This document shows positions 13,344-28,100 of a DNA stretch of 64,000 bases, piece after piece. The DNA lies in the IMG/VR virus record IMGVR_UViG_3300008259_003073, one strand, 5' to 3'. A program made the translations under genes and the position numbers. This DNA comes from a virus. Taxonomy: Duplodnaviria > Caudoviricetes. Position 1 is the stretch's first letter, and each line of letters starts with the position of its first letter. The notes below the pieces were generated by a model, which saw nothing but the letters and a program-made list of their open reading frames with translations, did no database searches and was not told where the DNA came from.

Positions 13344-13532
13344 CTAAAGAAAACCCAAATCTTTTTGATTCTTTCTTATAGCTTTTTCTTTTTCTAATCT
13401 ATTTTTAACGGATGGTTTAACAAATGTCTGCCGTTCTCTTAACTGCTCTACTTGTTTAATGTTCTGAACTTTTCTCTTATATTGTTTCAGAGCTAGTTCT
13501 ATATTACCGTTTTTAATATCAATTATAATCAT
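13344..13532 (-). CDS. rpsU: Ribosomal protein bS21 homologue, Bacteroidota-type
   Basis: 62 aa, basic; IELALKQYKRK...QLRERQTFVKPSVKNR matches the bS21 signature (ALKRxKRK...LRxRxxFxKPS). Confidence 0.9.
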   Translation of the reverse strand: MIIIDIKNGNIELALKQYKRKVQNIKQVEQLRERQTFVKPSVKNRLEKEKAIRKNQKDLGFL

Positions 13533-13915: not shown

Positions 13916-14353
13916 TTATGCTTTCCATTTCATTGCCTGCATTTTCTTACTCATGTCAGATGTTATTCCTCTTTCGGTAGCCTCATCATTCATTGCTTTG
14001 GTTGCAGTTCTTGTCAATTCCAATTCTAATTCTTGGTAATTAATATCTGGATCGTCTTTATATTGTTTTAATATCCGTTGTGTATATGAATCGTTAACAA
14101 ATGCAGTTATCCAAGCTGGTCCAATTCCAGTAGTAGAAACAATATCATTCATTCTACTAATAAACCCTCTGTTACCATATAATTTTTTGTAAATATCTTT
14201 TAATGCTCTCTGTACTCCAACACTTCTACCATGATAATATGCATCGACATTATCGGCTAATTTACTAAAGAACATAGTAATAAACCCAAAGAATGCAATA
14301 GTGCCAAGTATTGCCAATAATCCTAGTTCATTCAAAGGTTCTTTTTGTGACAT
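13916..14353 (-). CDS. Putative internal head protein with hydrophobic helix after an LNE site
   Basis: MSQKEPLNE followed by the hydrophobic LGLLAILGTIAFFGFITMFF; paralogue of the 15869-16270 module. Confidence 0.5.
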   Translation of the reverse strand: MSQKEPLNELGLLAILGTIAFFGFITMFFSKLADNVDAYYHGRSVGVQRALKDIYKKLYGNRGFISRMNDIVSTTGIGPAWITAFVNDSYTQRILKQYKDDPDINYQELELELTRTATKAMNDEATERGITSDMSKKMQAMKWKA

Positions 14354-15276: not shown

Positions 15277-15867
15277 TTAATTTAATTCTATTATAATTTC
15301 TCTCATTAAATCTTGTGATTTACACCACTTACCACATTCTTCTGCCATTTTAGCCCACTGCTTTGATTCATTCATTGGTGCCATAAATGCTCCATGTGTG
15401 GATGGATTAGAAACGAAATCCCAACCAACCAATTCGAAATCTTCCTGAACCATTACGGTCCCATCTTTTAATTCCTTTACTGAACCTAATCCTCGTGATG
15501 AAATACCTAAACGGATATTATTTTTTAATAATTCTTTTAAGATATTACCAGATGGAGTTGAAAGAATTTCTACTACACCACATACATCATCACCTTCCCA
15601 ATAAATTTCTCTAATGTTGTGGGATACATTTTTTAAGTTGATAACAGGAGAATCTGGATGGTCCAACTCACCTAGCGCTCTACGTTCTTTAATAAGTTGT
15701 TTGTATTTTGCACATTCTCTTTCTAAAATTTCTCTAGGATAGCGTCTACCATTTTGATTAGCAGCACCTGCTCTTTGTAAGATGCCCTTTACCAAATATG
15801 TTCCATTTTCTTCTTGTTGAAGTTTTGCTTCAAACAAATGGGTTTCTATCAATAATCCTTTATTCAT
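15277..15867 (-). CDS. gp21: Prohead protease, T4 gp21-like
   Basis: NQNGRRYP, ALGELDHP, VSH, LGISSRGLGS and DFVSNPS motifs. Confidence 0.95.
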   Translation of the reverse strand: MNKGLLIETHLFEAKLQQEENGTYLVKGILQRAGAANQNGRRYPREILERECAKYKQLIKERRALGELDHPDSPVINLKNVSHNIREIYWEGDDVCGVVEILSTPSGNILKELLKNNIRLGISSRGLGSVKELKDGTVMVQEDFELVGWDFVSNPSTHGAFMAPMNESKQWAKMAEECGKWCKSQDLMREIIIELN

Positions 15868-15868
15868 C

Positions 15869-16270
15869 TTACTTTATATCGTTTTTAACCTTTTCAATTG
15901 CTTTCTTACTATCGTTAGACCAAGCTTTCAAAAATATATTTTTTAAACCACTTTCAATATCTTCTTTATCAACATTATCGTTATTTACTTTTTTAATAAG
16001 AGATTGAATATAATCAGATTTAACCATTTTATCTGCAGCTGCAGCGTTTACTCCGTTATTCTTTTCAATATATTCAGTAACATCACTTATAAATTTTTTA
16101 TTTGATTGTAATTCATCTAATATTCCTGATATTTCTTTTTCAGTTTCTTTAGAACCACTAAAGTATTTAATTCCTTTTTCTATTAAACCCCCTATGTAAT
16201 ACATTGCAATTTTACCAATAATGATACCAGTTAGTGTTGCCAGTATTCCAATAGCTATATTTTCATTTAC
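15869..16270 (-). CDS. Membrane-anchor module in the -1 frame behind a slippery site (ORF track calls only 15869-16204)
   Basis: The frame is open upstream of the ATG at 16204 as VNENIAIGILATLTGIIIGKIA, up to the A11 run; aligns with 13916-14353. Confidence 0.6.
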   Translation of the reverse strand, partial: VNENIAIGILATLTGIIIGKIAMYYIGGLIEKGIKYFSGSKETEKEISGILDELQSNKKFISDVTEYIEKNNGVNAAAADKMVKSDYIQSLIKKVNNDNVDKEDIESGLKNIFLKAWSNDSKKAIEKVKNDIK

Positions 16271-16290
16271 TTTTTTTTTTTAACCCCCTC
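16267..16290 (-). other. Candidate -1 frameshift / slippage site GAG GGG GTT AAA AAA AAA AAG TAA
   Basis: A11 run (16271-16281) ending in the A-AAA-AAG heptamer immediately before the stop codon; the -1 frame continues as a coherent protein. Confidence 0.55.
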
Positions 16291-16956
16291 GTTTGTTGAT
16301 TCAGTTGTTATCTTATTTTTTTTGAAATATGCAATTACATCTTTACCAGTATCAAATGCTTTTTGACCTCCCCAAGAAGAATGATACATCCAATATGAAT
16401 TGCTTCCATCTTCCCAATCAAAATCACCCGAAGATATTTCTCTACCATCATAGGTTAAATACCCAACACCTTGTTTAGAATAAAAACGATATTTACCATC
16501 TCTAAAATTAACATCTTCGTTTACTTTTGATTCGCTTTTGTTTATTTCTTTACCAGCTTTTACCGCATCTTTATGTGCATCAGAATTACCATGTGCAGGT
16601 TCTTCTCCTCTGGCTTTTTTAGCTCTTATGTTAGCCCACAACCCTGGATTTTCTTCTTCTACTTTTTTACCAGCTCTTAATGCTGCTAAATCGGAACCTT
16701 CAATTTCACCATCACCATCGGTATCAATTTTCTTTTGACCCGCAGTTAATTCAGCTTCATTATATCCTCTTAATCTTCCTTCAGATTTCGCTTTGTAAGC
16801 GGTATCTACTGCATTAAAAAATTTCTTCTTTTGTTCATCAGACATATCAGTAATTGATTTACCAACTTTATCCAACATATGTTTAAAAAGTTGTTGATAG
16901 TCTTGTTCCTCTCTAACAACATTTTTAATAAGTTCCAATAATTGTGATTTTTTCAT
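16267..16956 (-). CDS. Modular putative internal head protein
   Basis: MKKSQLLELIKNVVRE leader; DxDxDG EF-hand-like loop (IDTDGDGEIEGSD); GLWANIRAKK module; VNE/TNE boundaries; ends in KKKK at the A-run. Confidence 0.6.
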   Translation of the reverse strand: MKKSQLLELIKNVVREEQDYQQLFKHMLDKVGKSITDMSDEQKKKFFNAVDTAYKAKSEGRLRGYNEAELTAGQKKIDTDGDGEIEGSDLAALRAGKKVEEENPGLWANIRAKKARGEEPAHGNSDAHKDAVKAGKEINKSESKVNEDVNFRDGKYRFYSKQGVGYLTYDGREISSGDFDWEDGSNSYWMYHSSWGGQKAFDTGKDVIAYFKKNKITTESTNEGVKKKK

Positions 16957-17003: not shown

Positions 17004-18677
17004 TTATTTATCCGTAGTAGATTTACCAAAAACTCTTTGTATTTCCGGTCCTTTTGAAGAATCTACTTTTGATTTTATAATTTTAAGTGCATCTTTTTTT
17101 AATTCACTAGGATGAGAATTAAACCATTCTGAAATATCTTCATTACTCTTTATTGCTCTTCTTCTTTGTCCACCATCATCGATATAATTTGTGTAAAAAT
17201 CATACCATCTTAATACGGAATCCGCTAATTCTTTTCCAGTTTTGGCAGGTGTGTTTTGACTTGCTTCGTTTACTGATTCGTATTTAATCATATCTGGATT
17301 AAACTTTTCAAAATTCTTTCTTGCCCATTTTACGGCAGCTTCATAAGAATTGAATTTAATCCTATCCTGTTTGAACCCCTTTGCCTTATTTAAGAAATCA
17401 ATATAAACTTTTTCTTCGTTTATAGATTCTTGAATTTTATTTCTTTTCATCCATTCTTCTAAATTACGAATTGCTGAATCAAATACTCTACTTCTATCAT
17501 GGTCCATTCCAAAGTTTTTGAAGTATTCTTTCATCATCTGATACGGTGAATCTAATTGCTCACCGTTTCTTTTCATATCTTTGATATTCATAGCAACTTG
17601 ATAAGCTGCCATCTTACCACCAAAGAAAATAGCTTCGGATGTAATATCATTCCAAAATCTATCCACCAATGAAGATAATGGTTTTCCTTTTGAGCGATAC
17701 CCAAATTTTTCGTTACCTAATGATTCTACAAAGTAAATCAATCTTTCTGCGTTGGTTACTTTATCTAAAAACTTTTCCTTTACCATTCCTTGAAGAACTT
17801 TTTCACCCTGTGATGAAATTGGAATTTTGTTGATTCCTAATTCTTTCATTTTAGAATCAACATCACGAGGCATCATAAATTCGTTTATTGATTTACCTTC
17901 ACTAATTACTTTATTACTTGGAAATGATACTGATGGTTGGTTTCCAAATGTTTTATCAACTTTAGCATTGATTCCAAATTGTGATTTTAACATTTTTACA
18001 ACACCACTGCCAAACTTTATATCAGTAAGTTTAAGATAAATGTAATTTCTATTAGGTGCATTCTTAATTTCACCACTTACAAACTTTGAACCTATTAATT
18101 TAATAATATCATCTACTACATCTGCTGCAAGGTATCCTTTAAGTTCGGATTCTTTTACTACGGAATATCCAGTTAAATCGGCTTGCCTCTTTCCCTTTTT
18201 CTCTTCACTATCTTTACCACTAAATGCGAATGGAGTATTGTATCCTTCAACACCACCAGTAGTATTCATCTCATCTACTTTTAATTCGGCATCTTTGTAC
18301 ATATCACTAACTTTGTCATTCAATTCTGCTGCCAATTTTTTCTTTTGTGCAGTTAGTGTTTTTAGTTGTTGTATGTGTTGTTTTTCGGCAGGAGTACCTT
18401 TGGATTTTTTATATGCTTCTAAACTCTTTTCCATAGAATCTAAAACTTTTGCATAATCCGTTTGAATGGCCTTAACAGAACGTAATTCAGCCAACACCAT
18501 TTCTTTTATTTTATCAGGCAATCCTTTGTGAGATGTTGATGCAAAATCTTTAGCATCTTTATCACTCATTGAATCTGCTGCTTTTTCAACTTCTGGGGAT
18601 GGGTTTTCCATATCGCCCTTTTGAGCGGCGTGTACCATACCCATAAATTTTTGTTGTGCTTTAGATACTGCTGGCAT
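17004..18677 (-). CDS. Modular putative internal head polyprotein
   Basis: N-terminal MPAVSKAQQKFMGMVHA motif; unrelated-looking modules separated by IKE, VDE, VKE, ISE, INE, ES(I/V)NE. Confidence 0.6.
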   Translation of the reverse strand: MPAVSKAQQKFMGMVHAAQKGDMENPSPEVEKAADSMSDKDAKDFASTSHKGLPDKIKEMVLAELRSVKAIQTDYAKVLDSMEKSLEAYKKSKGTPAEKQHIQQLKTLTAQKKKLAAELNDKVSDMYKDAELKVDEMNTTGGVEGYNTPFAFSGKDSEEKKGKRQADLTGYSVVKESELKGYLAADVVDDIIKLIGSKFVSGEIKNAPNRNYIYLKLTDIKFGSGVVKMLKSQFGINAKVDKTFGNQPSVSFPSNKVISEGKSINEFMMPRDVDSKMKELGINKIPISSQGEKVLQGMVKEKFLDKVTNAERLIYFVESLGNEKFGYRSKGKPLSSLVDRFWNDITSEAIFFGGKMAAYQVAMNIKDMKRNGEQLDSPYQMMKEYFKNFGMDHDRSRVFDSAIRNLEEWMKRNKIQESINEEKVYIDFLNKAKGFKQDRIKFNSYEAAVKWARKNFEKFNPDMIKYESVNEASQNTPAKTGKELADSVLRWYDFYTNYIDDGGQRRRAIKSNEDISEWFNSHPSELKKDALKIIKSKVDSSKGPEIQRVFGKSTTDK

Positions 18678-19836: not shown

Positions 19837-21579
19837 TTACTTTTTGGTTAAATCTTCTGTCAAAATAGTTTTTTTATTACCATCCATATCCTTAAAAACT
19901 TCAAAATATGAACTCTTTCTCGGTTTGTATGGAACAGAACCTTCTTTTGCTTTAAGAGTTTTTATTCCTAATGGGTCTCTACCTTCAGGATGGTCATCAT
20001 GCCCATATCTAACAGGGTCTTTTGGTCTACCAACCTGTCCATCTAATTCAAGTTTTAACTTATTCAACTCCTCTTCAACATTAGTTGGTCCACCTTCAGT
20101 TCCAGTTTCTTTTGCTGGGTCTACACCTTGTGTTTCAATTGAAGTTAAACGGAACATTTGTTTAGTATCATCTAATACCTGCAATGTTAATTCATCCTGC
20201 TCATCTTTTGCCATCTTCATTACGGATTCATACATCCATTCTTTGGAGAACATCTTTGTTTGTTGCATTTGTTGAATTAGGGCTACTTTTGAAGTGTATA
20301 GTTCAACCTGCTCCTGCTCATAAATTCTAGATGGAACTGTTAATTCCAATGTAAAGTCTGTTAAACGGTCATCGTTAATACCTTGTGCGTATAAATGAAC
20401 GATTGCAATTTTAGTTAATTCGGAAATCAATACTCTCTGAACTCTTTCAATTGTTTTGGCAAAACGAATATCCATTGATGCCAATGTTGCTTTACCATTA
20501 GTATCTTCCTCATAACCCAAATATGCTTTTGGAATTTTAAGTGCAGCCATCAACTTCCCTTTTAAGTAATTGATGTCATCAATCATATTGTACTCTAAAC
20601 CTTTTAGGGTATCAATTGAAGTTCCATTATCACTACCTCGAACTGGCATATAATAATCTTCAATAAGATTCATCATATTGTACTTTAAGTTGTACTCACC
20701 CGTTCTTTCATCAACAAATGGAACTTTCTTTGATGCGTTGATGATTTTTTGCATGTAGTTATCCACTTCGTTTGGTGGGATATTACCAACATCCACTTTA
20801 AAAATTCTCTTTTCAGGAGCTCTCATTACTCTGTGGATTAACATTGCATCTTCCATCAACATTAATTGTTTCCAAACTCTTCTAGCTCCTTCAACCATAG
20901 ATTTTCCATAAGGTAAGAAGTTTGAATCTGAATTTAAACGGAAGTGAGCAATCTCATAGTTTTCAAATTCCTTTTTAGTAGTTTGACCTACTGCCATATA
21001 TGGGTTTTGATATGGGGCATATACGAATTTAACTCTTTGTGGATTTTCAGGATCAAATCCCTCTACTCTACTCATTTCGTATGATGATAATGGCATTACG
21101 TTTATAATTCCCAATTCATCTGCAATTTCTAATTCTAAAAAGAAATCACCATATTTTACCAAGTTTCGTGTCCAAGGCCATAAGTTGAACTCAATGTTAA
21201 GAATATCGTAAAATAAGTTTTCTAATATTTGTTTGATGTTATCATCATCGTGATGAATTTTTAAAATACTACCATGTTCGTTTTTAGCGGTACATTCATC
21301 TGCATATACATCCAATGCGGATGATAAAATGGGGTCCATATCCATTGAATCGTAATCTCTAAACAAATCGATACGAACTTGTTGGTATGCCATTGCAGAT
21401 TCCACCCCACCTACACCGTAGTTACTTACTTTGAGTTTCATATAACGGTCTACAAGGTTAGTTGTCATATTCTGATACTCATCAGTATCGACTATTTTAA
21501 CTCCTTTTTCCGTTTTTCTTACTATGGTATTTGTTGAAAATAATTTCTGTAACCTACCGAATAATGTTTTATCTGCCAT
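19837..21579 (-). CDS. gp20: Portal protein, T4 gp20-like
   Basis: LMEDAMLIHRVMRAPEKRIFKVDVGNIP, EDYYMPVRG...TSIDTLKG and DDINYLKGKLMAALKIPKAYL motifs. Confidence 0.95.
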   Translation of the reverse strand: MADKTLFGRLQKLFSTNTIVRKTEKGVKIVDTDEYQNMTTNLVDRYMKLKVSNYGVGGVESAMAYQQVRIDLFRDYDSMDMDPILSSALDVYADECTAKNEHGSILKIHHDDDNIKQILENLFYDILNIEFNLWPWTRNLVKYGDFFLELEIADELGIINVMPLSSYEMSRVEGFDPENPQRVKFVYAPYQNPYMAVGQTTKKEFENYEIAHFRLNSDSNFLPYGKSMVEGARRVWKQLMLMEDAMLIHRVMRAPEKRIFKVDVGNIPPNEVDNYMQKIINASKKVPFVDERTGEYNLKYNMMNLIEDYYMPVRGSDNGTSIDTLKGLEYNMIDDINYLKGKLMAALKIPKAYLGYEEDTNGKATLASMDIRFAKTIERVQRVLISELTKIAIVHLYAQGINDDRLTDFTLELTVPSRIYEQEQVELYTSKVALIQQMQQTKMFSKEWMYESVMKMAKDEQDELTLQVLDDTKQMFRLTSIETQGVDPAKETGTEGGPTNVEEELNKLKLELDGQVGRPKDPVRYGHDDHPEGRDPLGIKTLKAKEGSVPYKPRKSSYFEVFKDMDGNKKTILTEDLTKK

Positions 21580-25151: not shown

Positions 25152-28100
25152 TTATTCGTAAAATATACCTAATATCTGATTTAGTGGTGCAAATGTGCCT
25201 GTAAGTTTGTATGTATTACCCTTATACACAAACACTATACCTTCATTAGGAACTATCTTACCCTTACCACCAATACTAGCTAATCTACTTAATTCCATTT
25301 TTAATTTAGCTATTTTAGATACATCACCACTACCTCTTACTTTTTCCGCAGTAGATTCCAATCTGTTTTTCATATCGGCAACTGCTGCATTTGGATTTGC
25401 AGTTAAAACTGAACTCATAAACGAAAGAACATCGGCACCAACTCCCAAAAATATCTCTTCAAATTGTCTAACATTTTCTTTTTGTTGCTTTACTACATTT
25501 ACTTTATCATTATCCATTGCCCACTTTTGAGCTTCCTTATCTACAATTGCATTTAAACGGAATGATTTATCACCAAACGCCCATCTCTTTATTAATGCAT
25601 CTCTTTCAAATTTCTCTAATTTAACTTTTGATTTATCTATAAAATTAGACCACCATGCTTGATGATATTCGGAAACACCATCGTTGTTAGATAATTGAAA
25701 TTCAGATTGTAATTTTTGTAATTTACTTAAATACTTACCTTGCTTTGAACTCAAATTTTCATTTTTAGGAAGTTGTGTAACAGGAGGTCCTTGTATAGTA
25801 TATTTAGATTGAACATCCGCATTCACTTGCTTAATCATCCCTGCCAATTTAGTTGCTGCAGATTGGTCAGCAGAAACTGCTTTACCACTTTCATCATAAC
25901 AAGTTGTGTTATGAAATACCAATAAAGCCTGTCCGTAAGGAATAACATTTACAGAAGTTGGCCATATTACTTCCAAATTCATAAAACAATGTCCTTCATT
26001 AAATATTTTCTTTCGTTGTGGTTCCGAAAGAGATTGGATTGCCGCTGATAAATCTTTCATTGCAAAATTATATGCATCGGTTAATCCACCTCTACCACTA
26101 AATTTAGATGCAACATCTTCAATTCCCATTGCGTTTGCTCCACCATTTGCCAAATGTCCTTTGTTTCTTGCTGCAATCAATCTACCATTCTTCCAGCTAA
26201 TTGCTAATGCCTGTCCATCGGTTTTTTCTCTTGTCAATTCTAACTCACCAGTCAATGCTCCTGTGATTATATTTTTTAAATCACCAAAAGTTAAATCCAT
26301 ATCATCAAATGGGTGAGACATGTGACCGTATGCACCACCTTCAGTTAAAATCGTTTCATTTGTCTTTTTTTTTAAGTTTCTTTTTTGAAGAACTAATTTA
26401 TTTAATTCTGAAAATAAATCAGCAATATCTTTATCCAATTTTTTTTCATCAGCTGACATTGGGGATTCAATATCTACATTGGAATAAAGTTTTTTCTTTT
26501 TAGCAATTAAAGCATCTACTTTTTTAAGTAAATCATTCTTTGCCGTATCTAAATCTTTTATTATATCTTCCGTTGATGATTCGTTTAGCTTAACCCCCGC
26601 ATAATCTAATCTATATTCATAATACGCCTTTTTAATATCAGCAGGAATCTTTGAATTTTTAGTGAATATTTGGTCTACCATCTTACGAGTATCATTTGAT
26701 GATAGATTCCATTTTAACTTATTTTTATCTAATGTAAAGAAAGTATTTAAAGTAAAATCTATCTTACTCAACATTGGTTTCAAAATTTCATTTTCAAAAA
26801 ATGAATCGTATTCCTTTCGCTGCTCTCTCTCTAAATAATTAAGAGCGAAGTTCCCATCATACAAATACGCTTTTAATGCTTTTCCAACCATCACCAACAC
26901 ATACTTTTTATCGTTAGGACCTAAATACTTTTCATCGGAATTACCAATCACATATGTGTACTGATTACCTACCAAGTCCTTTAATTTTACTTCGTTTAAT
27001 TTACCGGTATCCGTTTTAAAGAATGGACCTCTTCTTACACTTCTAAAATCTAAACTCATTTCGTTTCCAAAAATCTCTTTCGGTGCAAGTACTTTTACTC
27101 TAATAGTTCCATTTTTGTTATCTACACCTATTGTTTCAAAATCAATTTCGGAGTATTTTTTACCTTTAAATCCTAAATTTTTACCAGTAATAAACTTATG
27201 AACTTTACCACTACTAACTGCCTGTGCTTCACTTACAGGTTCATATCCATTATCTTCGGTATCTTTTATATTGGGTTGATGTCCTGGCTGTCTTTTTCTA
27301 TTATCATCAAAATCTACAGTATCTAATTCAGCTGATTGCCCAATATCGTTCTTGTGATTGTTTGTAAAATCTTTTACGGCTTGAGATATAGATTCACCAC
27401 GTGGTATTCTAAATGTTGTTGCCTTCTTACCATTGATTGTAGGCATTCCGTGGTCATCTTTACCAATATCTTTAACGGTAACTCTTTTATTTTTAAACTT
27501 ACCCATTAAAACCTCATCACCCTTATCAACATCTACATTAATATCTTCTTTGACAAAATCAGTTTCAACATATTCTACACTTGGTAAGTTTTTTATAGTA
27601 TATTTTATAGTTCTTTCTTCCGCATCATCATCACCAAATATAGCATCTGCTTTTGGAAAATCGGTTTGAGTGTATCCACCATTCGCATACCAGGATTCAG
27701 GTCTATCGGAATCTAATTTTCTTTTTTTACCTTTTTTAATAAATGAACCATCTGGAACATCTGCGGTATTTGCAGTTCCAACATTACTAACCTCTGTGTA
27801 AATTTGTTTGTTGATTCTACCATATTCTCTCATAAGAATACCTGCTACGGCATGTGCTTGGTTTTCAACTGGCGAACCATCTGCCCCATCTTTAACTTCG
27901 TTTCGTATAAACCCCAACTCATCTTGTTTTCTATGAACCATTTCATGTGCAAGTGTTCTCAATATATCCGCAGTTAATCTACCTTCAGTTGCAACATATA
28001 TTGATTTACTAATCGGGTCATATCCACCCAACGATGTTTTGGCTTCTGCAAATTTTCTACCACCAACTAAAGTTATTTTTGGAGTTTCTTTTAATTTTAA

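Follow-up and report, generated by a model that had tools for sequence, protein, structure and literature searches.

An uncultured T4-like phage probably has a programmed recoding site in its head-morphogenesis module, where a run of 11 A residues (A11) just ahead of a stop codon appears to give rise to both a 229-aa protein and a 362-aa fusion, most likely through slippage of the RNA polymerase; we estimate the probability of this reading as a whole at roughly 60%. The DNA analyzed here (64,000 nucleotides, hereafter "the window") belongs to a 201,940-bp IMG/VR virus record that is rated complete. The reading is based mainly on the conservation of the split between the two reading frames in related phages, on the coding character of a stretch that has no start codon, and on the avoidance of similar A-runs elsewhere in the genome.

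A start-less reading frame opens within an A-run

The upstream (0-frame) gene occupies positions 16267–16956 on the minus strand and encodes 229 aa, consisting of an N-terminal domain, a linker, a cassette extending from VNE to TNE, and GVKKKK followed by the stop. Its 3′ end reads GAG GGG GTT AAA AAA AAA AAG TAA, and when the sequence of this ORF was read again, the A11 run and the stop were found as given in a preliminary description of the window. The run itself (16271–16281, minus strand), which is the only homopolymer of at least 10 bases in the 64-kb window, holds an in-phase A-AAA-AAG heptamer (16270–16276), and the 0-frame stop TAA (16267–16269, minus strand), one base past the run, terminates the short isoform. 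The −1 frame contains a TAA at 16280–16282 and opens directly after it, at position 16279 inside the run. From there it reads KKK-VNE-NIAIGILATLTGIIIGKIA-M..., with no start codon, and continues into the ORF at 15869–16204. The start-less coding stretch (16205–16279, minus strand) comprises KKK, VNE (16262–16270), and most of a hydrophobic helix (16202–16258), and the ATG at 16204 is situated inside this helix (Kyte-Doolittle 19-residue mean of 2.10 for residues 8–26). The remainder of the downstream module (15869–16204, minus strand; 111 aa from the internal ATG) forms an all-helical domain, and the module as a whole spans 15869–16279 on the minus strand. When one base is gained at A11, 225 residues, KKKK, and 133 residues are joined into a 362-aa fusion, matching the product of about 362 aa that had been predicted for a −1 shift into 15869–16204. 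The GAGG noted earlier upstream of the heptamer is also present, within a G-rich, Shine-Dalgarno (SD)-like GAGGGGG element (16284–16290, minus strand) that encodes E-G-(V) and is not conserved as a signal.

Sequence comparison indicated that the start-less −1 frame is coding. In 31 distinct homologous 78-nt segments following the run, the −1 frame contained 0 stops, whereas the other two frames contained 146 and 91. The stretch comprising KKK, V/I-x-E, and the helix aligned at the protein level across the whole downstream family (alignment A1), and each of the 31 distinct junction sequences had V/I-x-E immediately after the lysines, in the form of VNE, VSE, VTE, VDE, or INE. Furthermore, the window encodes a paralogue of the downstream module (13916–14353, minus strand), in which the hydrophobic helix (19-residue Kyte-Doolittle mean of 2.25) is preceded by the gene's own 9-aa leader, MSQKEPLNE. 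The two proteins shared 26% identity over 127 aa (BLASTP, E-value of 1e−7), and their alignment began ahead of the ATG at 16204, at the K..(V/L)NE motif. Both the coding status of the −1 frame despite its lack of an ATG and its relationship to 13916–14353, which had been proposed from the window sequence, were thus corroborated, and the downstream frame is under purifying selection.

The frame split is conserved among related phages

A scan of IMG/VR with the upstream protein retrieved 207 related stretches, and another, for which a downstream-module alignment served as the query, retrieved 96. Combined, the two scans yielded 133 loci with the downstream module, representing 69 distinct junction contexts. 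The split was kept in 66 of these 69 contexts in IMG/VR; the out-of-frame junction is thus conserved in relatives, in line with the programmed short and long isoforms that the preliminary description had put forward with transcriptional slippage as one possible route. The frame offset was −1 in 65 contexts. The run in the 66 recoding junctions was A9 in 3 cases, A10 in 37, A11 in 25, and A12 in 1, and was never shorter than nine. The 0-frame stop lay 0–2 nt past the run in 63 of them and 4 nt past it in the other 3, and no ATG, GTG, or TTG preceded the helix of the downstream module in any of the 66. The differences among A10, A11, and A12 were substitutions at the edges of the run (C, T, or G to A on the 5′ side and G to A on the 3′ side), not indels, so that both the total length and the frame offset were kept. 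When the downstream proteins were clustered at 70% identity, 9 of the 10 clusters showed the split, with pairwise identities as low as 36%.

An in-frame fusion or continuous ORF across the run was found in none of the 133 related loci (69 contexts). A pattern scan of metagenomes also returned at least 12 related contigs among the 120 loci listed, and all 10 contigs that showed both modules had the usual offset, with no in-frame variant among these listed matches. In a single contig (L118, positions 1499–1509), the A11 run is preceded by a 46-nt deletion, which places the module in the +1 frame rather than the −1 frame. Judged from its sequence, this locus could be a defective variant or could be rescued by the loss of an A from the mRNA.

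Relatives without the fusion and avoidance of long A-runs

The related phages include natural controls for the function of the run. In 19 distinct relatives without the downstream module, the protease gene directly follows the upstream gene, whose last 60 nt contained no A-run longer than 7 (n = 19). In another lineage (L001, L023–L030, and most of the 149-aa database proteins), the module has its own start and a leader, MIKLKS.LIEVMKKKSVNE, which overlaps the upstream stop (ATGA); here, a 2-nt insertion past an in-frame A10 restores the frame. The upstream protein has an N-terminus similar to this leader (MK..ELKELI.QVVKEE), a resemblance that fits a need of the module for an N-terminal targeting peptide and a cleavage site, obtained either via fusion or from a private leader. 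The leaders of the own-start lineage and of the paralogue end in VNE and LNE, respectively. Automatic names attached to the own-start (149-aa) relatives (P0004–P0035), such as "RecX/OraA" or "PerM permease", were not backed by any search.

To characterize lysine codon usage, KKK was counted in ORFs of at least 100 aa across the 202-kb genome. AAA AAA AAA was used in only 1 of 30 KKK windows, namely the junction, although 53% would be expected from the 81% usage of AAA (binomial, 4.5e−9). Where the preceding codon ended in A, the share of AAG-AAA among Lys-Lys pairs rose from 11% to 38%, interrupting the runs, and all 26 runs of at least three Lys codons in the genome except the recoding junction were broken by AAG. 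In contrast, in-phase A-AAA-AAG heptamers were not avoided (21 of 125 in the genome ORFs). The avoidance of AAA AAA AAA elsewhere implies that long runs of A are hazardous to this phage system, the junction being a deliberate exception.

Two other A-runs were observed. An in-frame A9 at 26365–26373 of the window (minus strand; TTA AAA AAA AAG ACA AAT GAA, encoding L-K-K-K-T-N-E) marks a cassette junction in a long head-module polyprotein, just before a ligase-like C-terminal module; as the other two frames stop within a few codons, slippage there would truncate the polyprotein. The only other sense-strand A-run of at least 10 in the genome is an in-frame A10 outside the window (G000:C1:22372–22381, minus strand; GAA AAA AAA AAG, encoding EKKK), which lies inside a long ORF and is possibly a second slippage site yielding a truncated form. 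Because KKK followed by x-N-E also occurs at the in-frame cassette junction at 26365–26373, part of the A-richness of the recoding junction may reflect a conserved Lys linker.

Polymerase slippage is favored over ribosomal frameshifting

The junctions combine features of two routes. On the one hand, they have an A/T run of at least 9 and two coding frames whose offset is conserved in diverged relatives, as in transcriptional slippage; on the other, all of them contain an in-phase slippery heptamer, A-AAA-AAG or A-AAA-AAA, as in dnaX-type frameshifting. Since the in-phase A-AAA-AAR heptamer and the stop occur together in every junction, and polymerase slippage and −1 ribosomal slippage would yield the identical 362-aa product, sequence alone cannot separate the two. 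Nevertheless, we consider slippage by the RNA polymerase to be the likelier route, by roughly 2:1, from five features of the junctions and their relatives: all runs have at least 9 A residues, RNA structure is not conserved, the SD-like element is not conserved either, a parallel exists in tssM1, and the module of L118, a single contig, is in the +1 frame and rescuable only if the mRNA loses an A. Nine nucleotides is the length of the RNA–DNA hybrid. Runs of 9 A or T residues slip with high efficiency in vivo in bacteria (PMC5009743), and the A11-plus-stop site of Citrobacter rodentium tssM1 undergoes transcriptional slippage at about 20–25% (PMC4256274).

That the fusion arises purely from −1 ribosomal frameshifting on A-AAA-AAG, in a manner resembling dnaX and perhaps with help from the adjacent stop codon or the upstream G-rich element, is the alternative that survives best; it is unlikely on the present evidence but deserves real weight, and it would leave both the product and the biology unchanged. 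The −1 frameshift of Escherichia coli dnaX combines A-AAA-AAG with an upstream SD-like element and a downstream stem-loop. The phage site shares the in-phase heptamer and the −1 outcome, and a heptamer together with a 0-frame stop is present in every junction, but both stimulators are unconserved in the phage, and its likely host is one without SD pairing. A GGGG or GGAG element occurs in the window, but an SD-like tetramer within 16 nt of the run was found in only 20 of the 66 junctions and was absent from the other 46. RNAalifold predicted 0 pairs on 24 junctions when a conserved downstream stem-loop or pseudoknot was sought, and the fold of the 86 nt downstream of the run in the window was no more stable than that of shuffled sequences (z = −0.28), as expected from the earlier remark that no strong hairpin was visible there. 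Moreover, the runs always contain at least 9 A residues although 7 would suffice for the ribosome, and it is the longer runs, not the 21 A-AAA-AAG heptamers in the genome ORFs, that are avoided. According to two studies (PMC7797042, PMC9976891), Bacteroidia ribosomes sequester the anti-SD sequence. The preliminary description had gone further in likening the site to the dnaX architecture and in suggesting a dependence on anti-SD release by the phage bS21 protein. This SD- and bS21-dependent form of the mechanism was rejected: the stimulators are not conserved, and the phage genes showed no SD enrichment (4 of 54 versus a background of 5.5%), which leaves an SD-dependent stimulator without basis here.

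Independent translation, phase variation, and assembly error

A second alternative holds that the downstream module is translated alone, from the ATG at 16204 or a non-canonical start, and that the upstream gene simply ends without any fusion. Gene callers do report truncated products of 105–126 aa in the relatives, as this would predict. However, the first canonical start varies from locus to locus and lies inside or past the conserved helix, and in numerous loci the run itself is where the frame first opens. In addition, the KKK, V/I-x-E, and helix segments ahead of any start are conserved, stop-free, and homologous to the N-terminus of the paralogue, and the sole lineage with a real start gained a whole leader with it. 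We therefore regard independent translation as very improbable, and a start at ATG 16204 was rejected outright on account of the conserved stop-free stretch upstream of any start.

Slightly less probable still is phase variation at the DNA level, in which the length of the A-run would shift during replication and give rise to phage sub-populations with an in-frame fused gene. Long homopolymers are indeed mutable in replication, and the relatives span run lengths from 9 to 12. Against this, neither the 133 loci (69 contexts) nor the 10 further metagenome contigs listed with both modules included a gene fused in frame, and the differences in run length reflect edge substitutions that keep the total length. 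Finally, the comparison indicates that the split is not a homopolymer assembly error, and that it marks a decaying gene is hardly credible: only the general error-proneness of long homopolymers speaks for this view, which is contradicted by the recurrence of the split in 66 distinct contexts that come from numerous samples and studies and have diverged downstream proteins, by the single offset shared by run lengths of A9 to A12, by the absence of the continuous ORF that relatives should have if a run of 9 or 12 A had been misread, and by the purifying selection on the downstream frame.

Gene neighborhood and features of the encoded proteins

A T4-type prohead protease gene (15277–15867, minus strand) lies directly downstream of the module (Pfam Peptidase_S77, 1.7e−29; phrog_207, 1.3e−53), and the window also contains a portal gene (19837–21579; phrog_213, 4.8e−66). 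The upstream gene is thus located between the portal and protease genes, a gene order like that of T4 genes 67 and 68. Nonetheless, the upstream protein had no detectable homology to T4 gp67 or gp68, no sequence homology to T4 core or internal proteins was found for either module, and neither module matched a head protein in Pfam or PHROGs. The earlier designation of the upstream product as a head protein is accordingly upheld by the position of the gene and by the cleavage motifs, but not by homology to head proteins.

The upstream family has a conserved N-terminal domain of approximately 95 aa, composed of a helical hairpin and a DxDxDG loop (alignment A3). In the AlphaFold model of the upstream protein, the N-terminal hairpin had a pLDDT of 83–94, whereas the model was poor overall (pLDDT 62, pTM 0.31). 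The relatives of this protein were found only in viruses, and searches of the Atlas yielded only viral hypothetical clusters together with weak dockerin/EF-hand leads. Residues 78–90 (window positions ~16687–16725) form a conserved D-x-D-x-D-G-E-I-E-G-S-D-L loop, similar to the calcium-binding loop of EF-hand and dockerin domains. The upstream gene also acts as a cassette carrier, with unrelated inserts of 30–120 aa at two fixed points (L025, L041, L142, L146, and L161). The cassette present in the window (residues 148–222) recurs, flanked by VNE, in 344–467-aa proteins of other phages (L025 and L041).

The downstream module was predicted with greater confidence to be all-helical (AlphaFold, pLDDT 84, pTM 0.77). 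Its fold had no match in the PDB at E ≤ 0.001 (Foldseek), its sequence had none in Pfam or PHROGs, and BFVD contained a single homologue, an uncharacterized protein of 204 aa with 39% identity. Because tblastn searches with both modules found no homologue of either in 50,697 GenBank phage records, we conclude that the lineage is uncultured.

In a DNA search of GenBank phages, only the protease and a neighboring N-terminal domain were matched. In a 557-aa protein (window 17004–18677), the first 59 aa (DUF3008) are common to "virion protein" genes of marine cyanophages such as S-SCSM1, with 70–79% DNA identity; from its sequence, this segment seems to be a further exchanged leader or cassette. 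Among proteases, the closest in DNA sequence was that of a Flavobacterium phage. This similarity, the lack of SD enrichment, and the presence of a bS21 gene (13344–13532) together suggest that the host is probably a member of Bacteroidota. Here, the bS21 gene and the head genes share a strand, whereas the gene is on the opposite strand in the bS21 phage clades of PMC9723584, a study that makes no mention of frameshifting or slippage.

Proposed mechanism of fusion and processing

In the mechanism that we propose, standard expression of 16267–16956 would end at the stop right past A11 and produce the 229-aa protein, whereas a fraction of expression events would gain one extra base at the run. 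Most likely, the host RNA polymerase would slip on the A10–12 run and add one A to the transcript; slippage of the ribosome by −1 on A-AAA-AAG, which would result in the identical protein, may also play a part. The shifted reading would enter the start-less −1 frame and generate the 362-aa fusion. This fusion would supply the parts missing from the module, namely a start, an N-terminal domain for entry into the prohead core, and a Lys-rich linker with a V/I-x-E site, and would carry the downstream module into the prohead core or hold it there. The adjacent S77 protease could then cut after VNE and free a 130-aa helical protein beginning with a membrane-like helix, which might serve as an internal or ejected head protein or as a (temporary) membrane tether.

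Analogy with T4 suggests the targeting to the head, the cleavage after VNE, and the role proposed for the hydrophobic helix. The protease gp21 of T4 cleaves after L/I-x-E, and short N-terminal propeptides bring internal proteins into the prohead core (PMC9026906; PMC3012670). Two features of T4-type core or internal proteins were also found here, namely a head-module site beside an S77 prohead protease and a hydrophobic-x-Glu motif at the boundary. The Peptidase_S77 gene next door, the V/I-x-E motif in 31 of 31 junction sequences, and the specificity of T4 gp21 thus lend support to the processing step. More speculatively, the arrangement might constitute a dosing-and-delivery device, in which a set minority of a core protein would carry a membrane-like helix behind a protease site and the A-run would act as a fixed joint for swapping cassettes, an idea to which we give a low probability. 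In one variant, the fusion may keep the core tethered to the cell membrane as it grows, up to the point of cleavage by the prohead protease; in another, a few copies of a membrane-inserting ejection protein may be loaded into each head.

Comparison with known systems and significance

The closest parallels among slippage sites are C. rodentium tssM1 (A11) and Yersinia pseudotuberculosis tssM3 (Gueguen et al. 2014, PMC4256274), in which a poly-A run near a stop codon likewise gives short and long variants. In tssM, the polymerase adds A residues at a set ratio (about 20–25% shifted), and both variants are needed (PMC4256274). However, tssM is a bacterial secretion-system gene whose mechanism was shown experimentally, whereas the phage site belongs to a head-module gene, is known from sequence comparison, and has a stop that abuts the run. 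As reviewed in PMC5009743, Thermus thermophilus dnaX (tau/gamma) similarly makes two proteins from one gene through a homopolymer of at least 9 and mixed mRNA, but there the unslipped mRNA encodes the long form, whereas at the phage site the slipped mRNA would do so.

Among recoded phage genes, the lambda G/GT tail chaperone, T7 10A/10B, and the major head protein of Lactobacillus phage A2 also have a −1 C-terminal extension on a fixed minority of a virion-module protein (cited in PMC5009743 and PMC10274946). The site described here differs from these in that it concerns another gene family, lies in a gene upstream of the prohead protease rather than in a capsid or tail-chaperone gene, and has a long homopolymer as its signal; its extension is also probably cut off again by the head protease. 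The internal and core proteins of T4 (PMC9026906, PMC3012670) share with it an adjacent T4-type protease and short N-terminal leaders ending in hydrophobic-x-Glu, but in T4 the propeptide is the gene's own leader, whereas here the targeting part would be provided via a frame-shifted fusion, and the cargo begins with a membrane-like helix. The device is thus of a known kind, resembling both poly-A slippage sites and recoded phage structural genes, and we found no description of one in this gene family or at this position.

These results place a well-supported recoding site within the head-assembly module of abundant, uncultured freshwater T4-like phages. They also indicate that the automatic annotation of these genes is wrong, since the downstream gene is either recorded as a truncated product of 105–126 aa or named RecX or PerM. 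With its natural controls, in which the run is absent from relatives that lack the module, one lineage has a module with a leader of its own, and long A-runs are avoided elsewhere, the family is a good system for studying protein ratios set by polymerase slippage, and it is also suited to the question of how cargo is attached to the prohead core.
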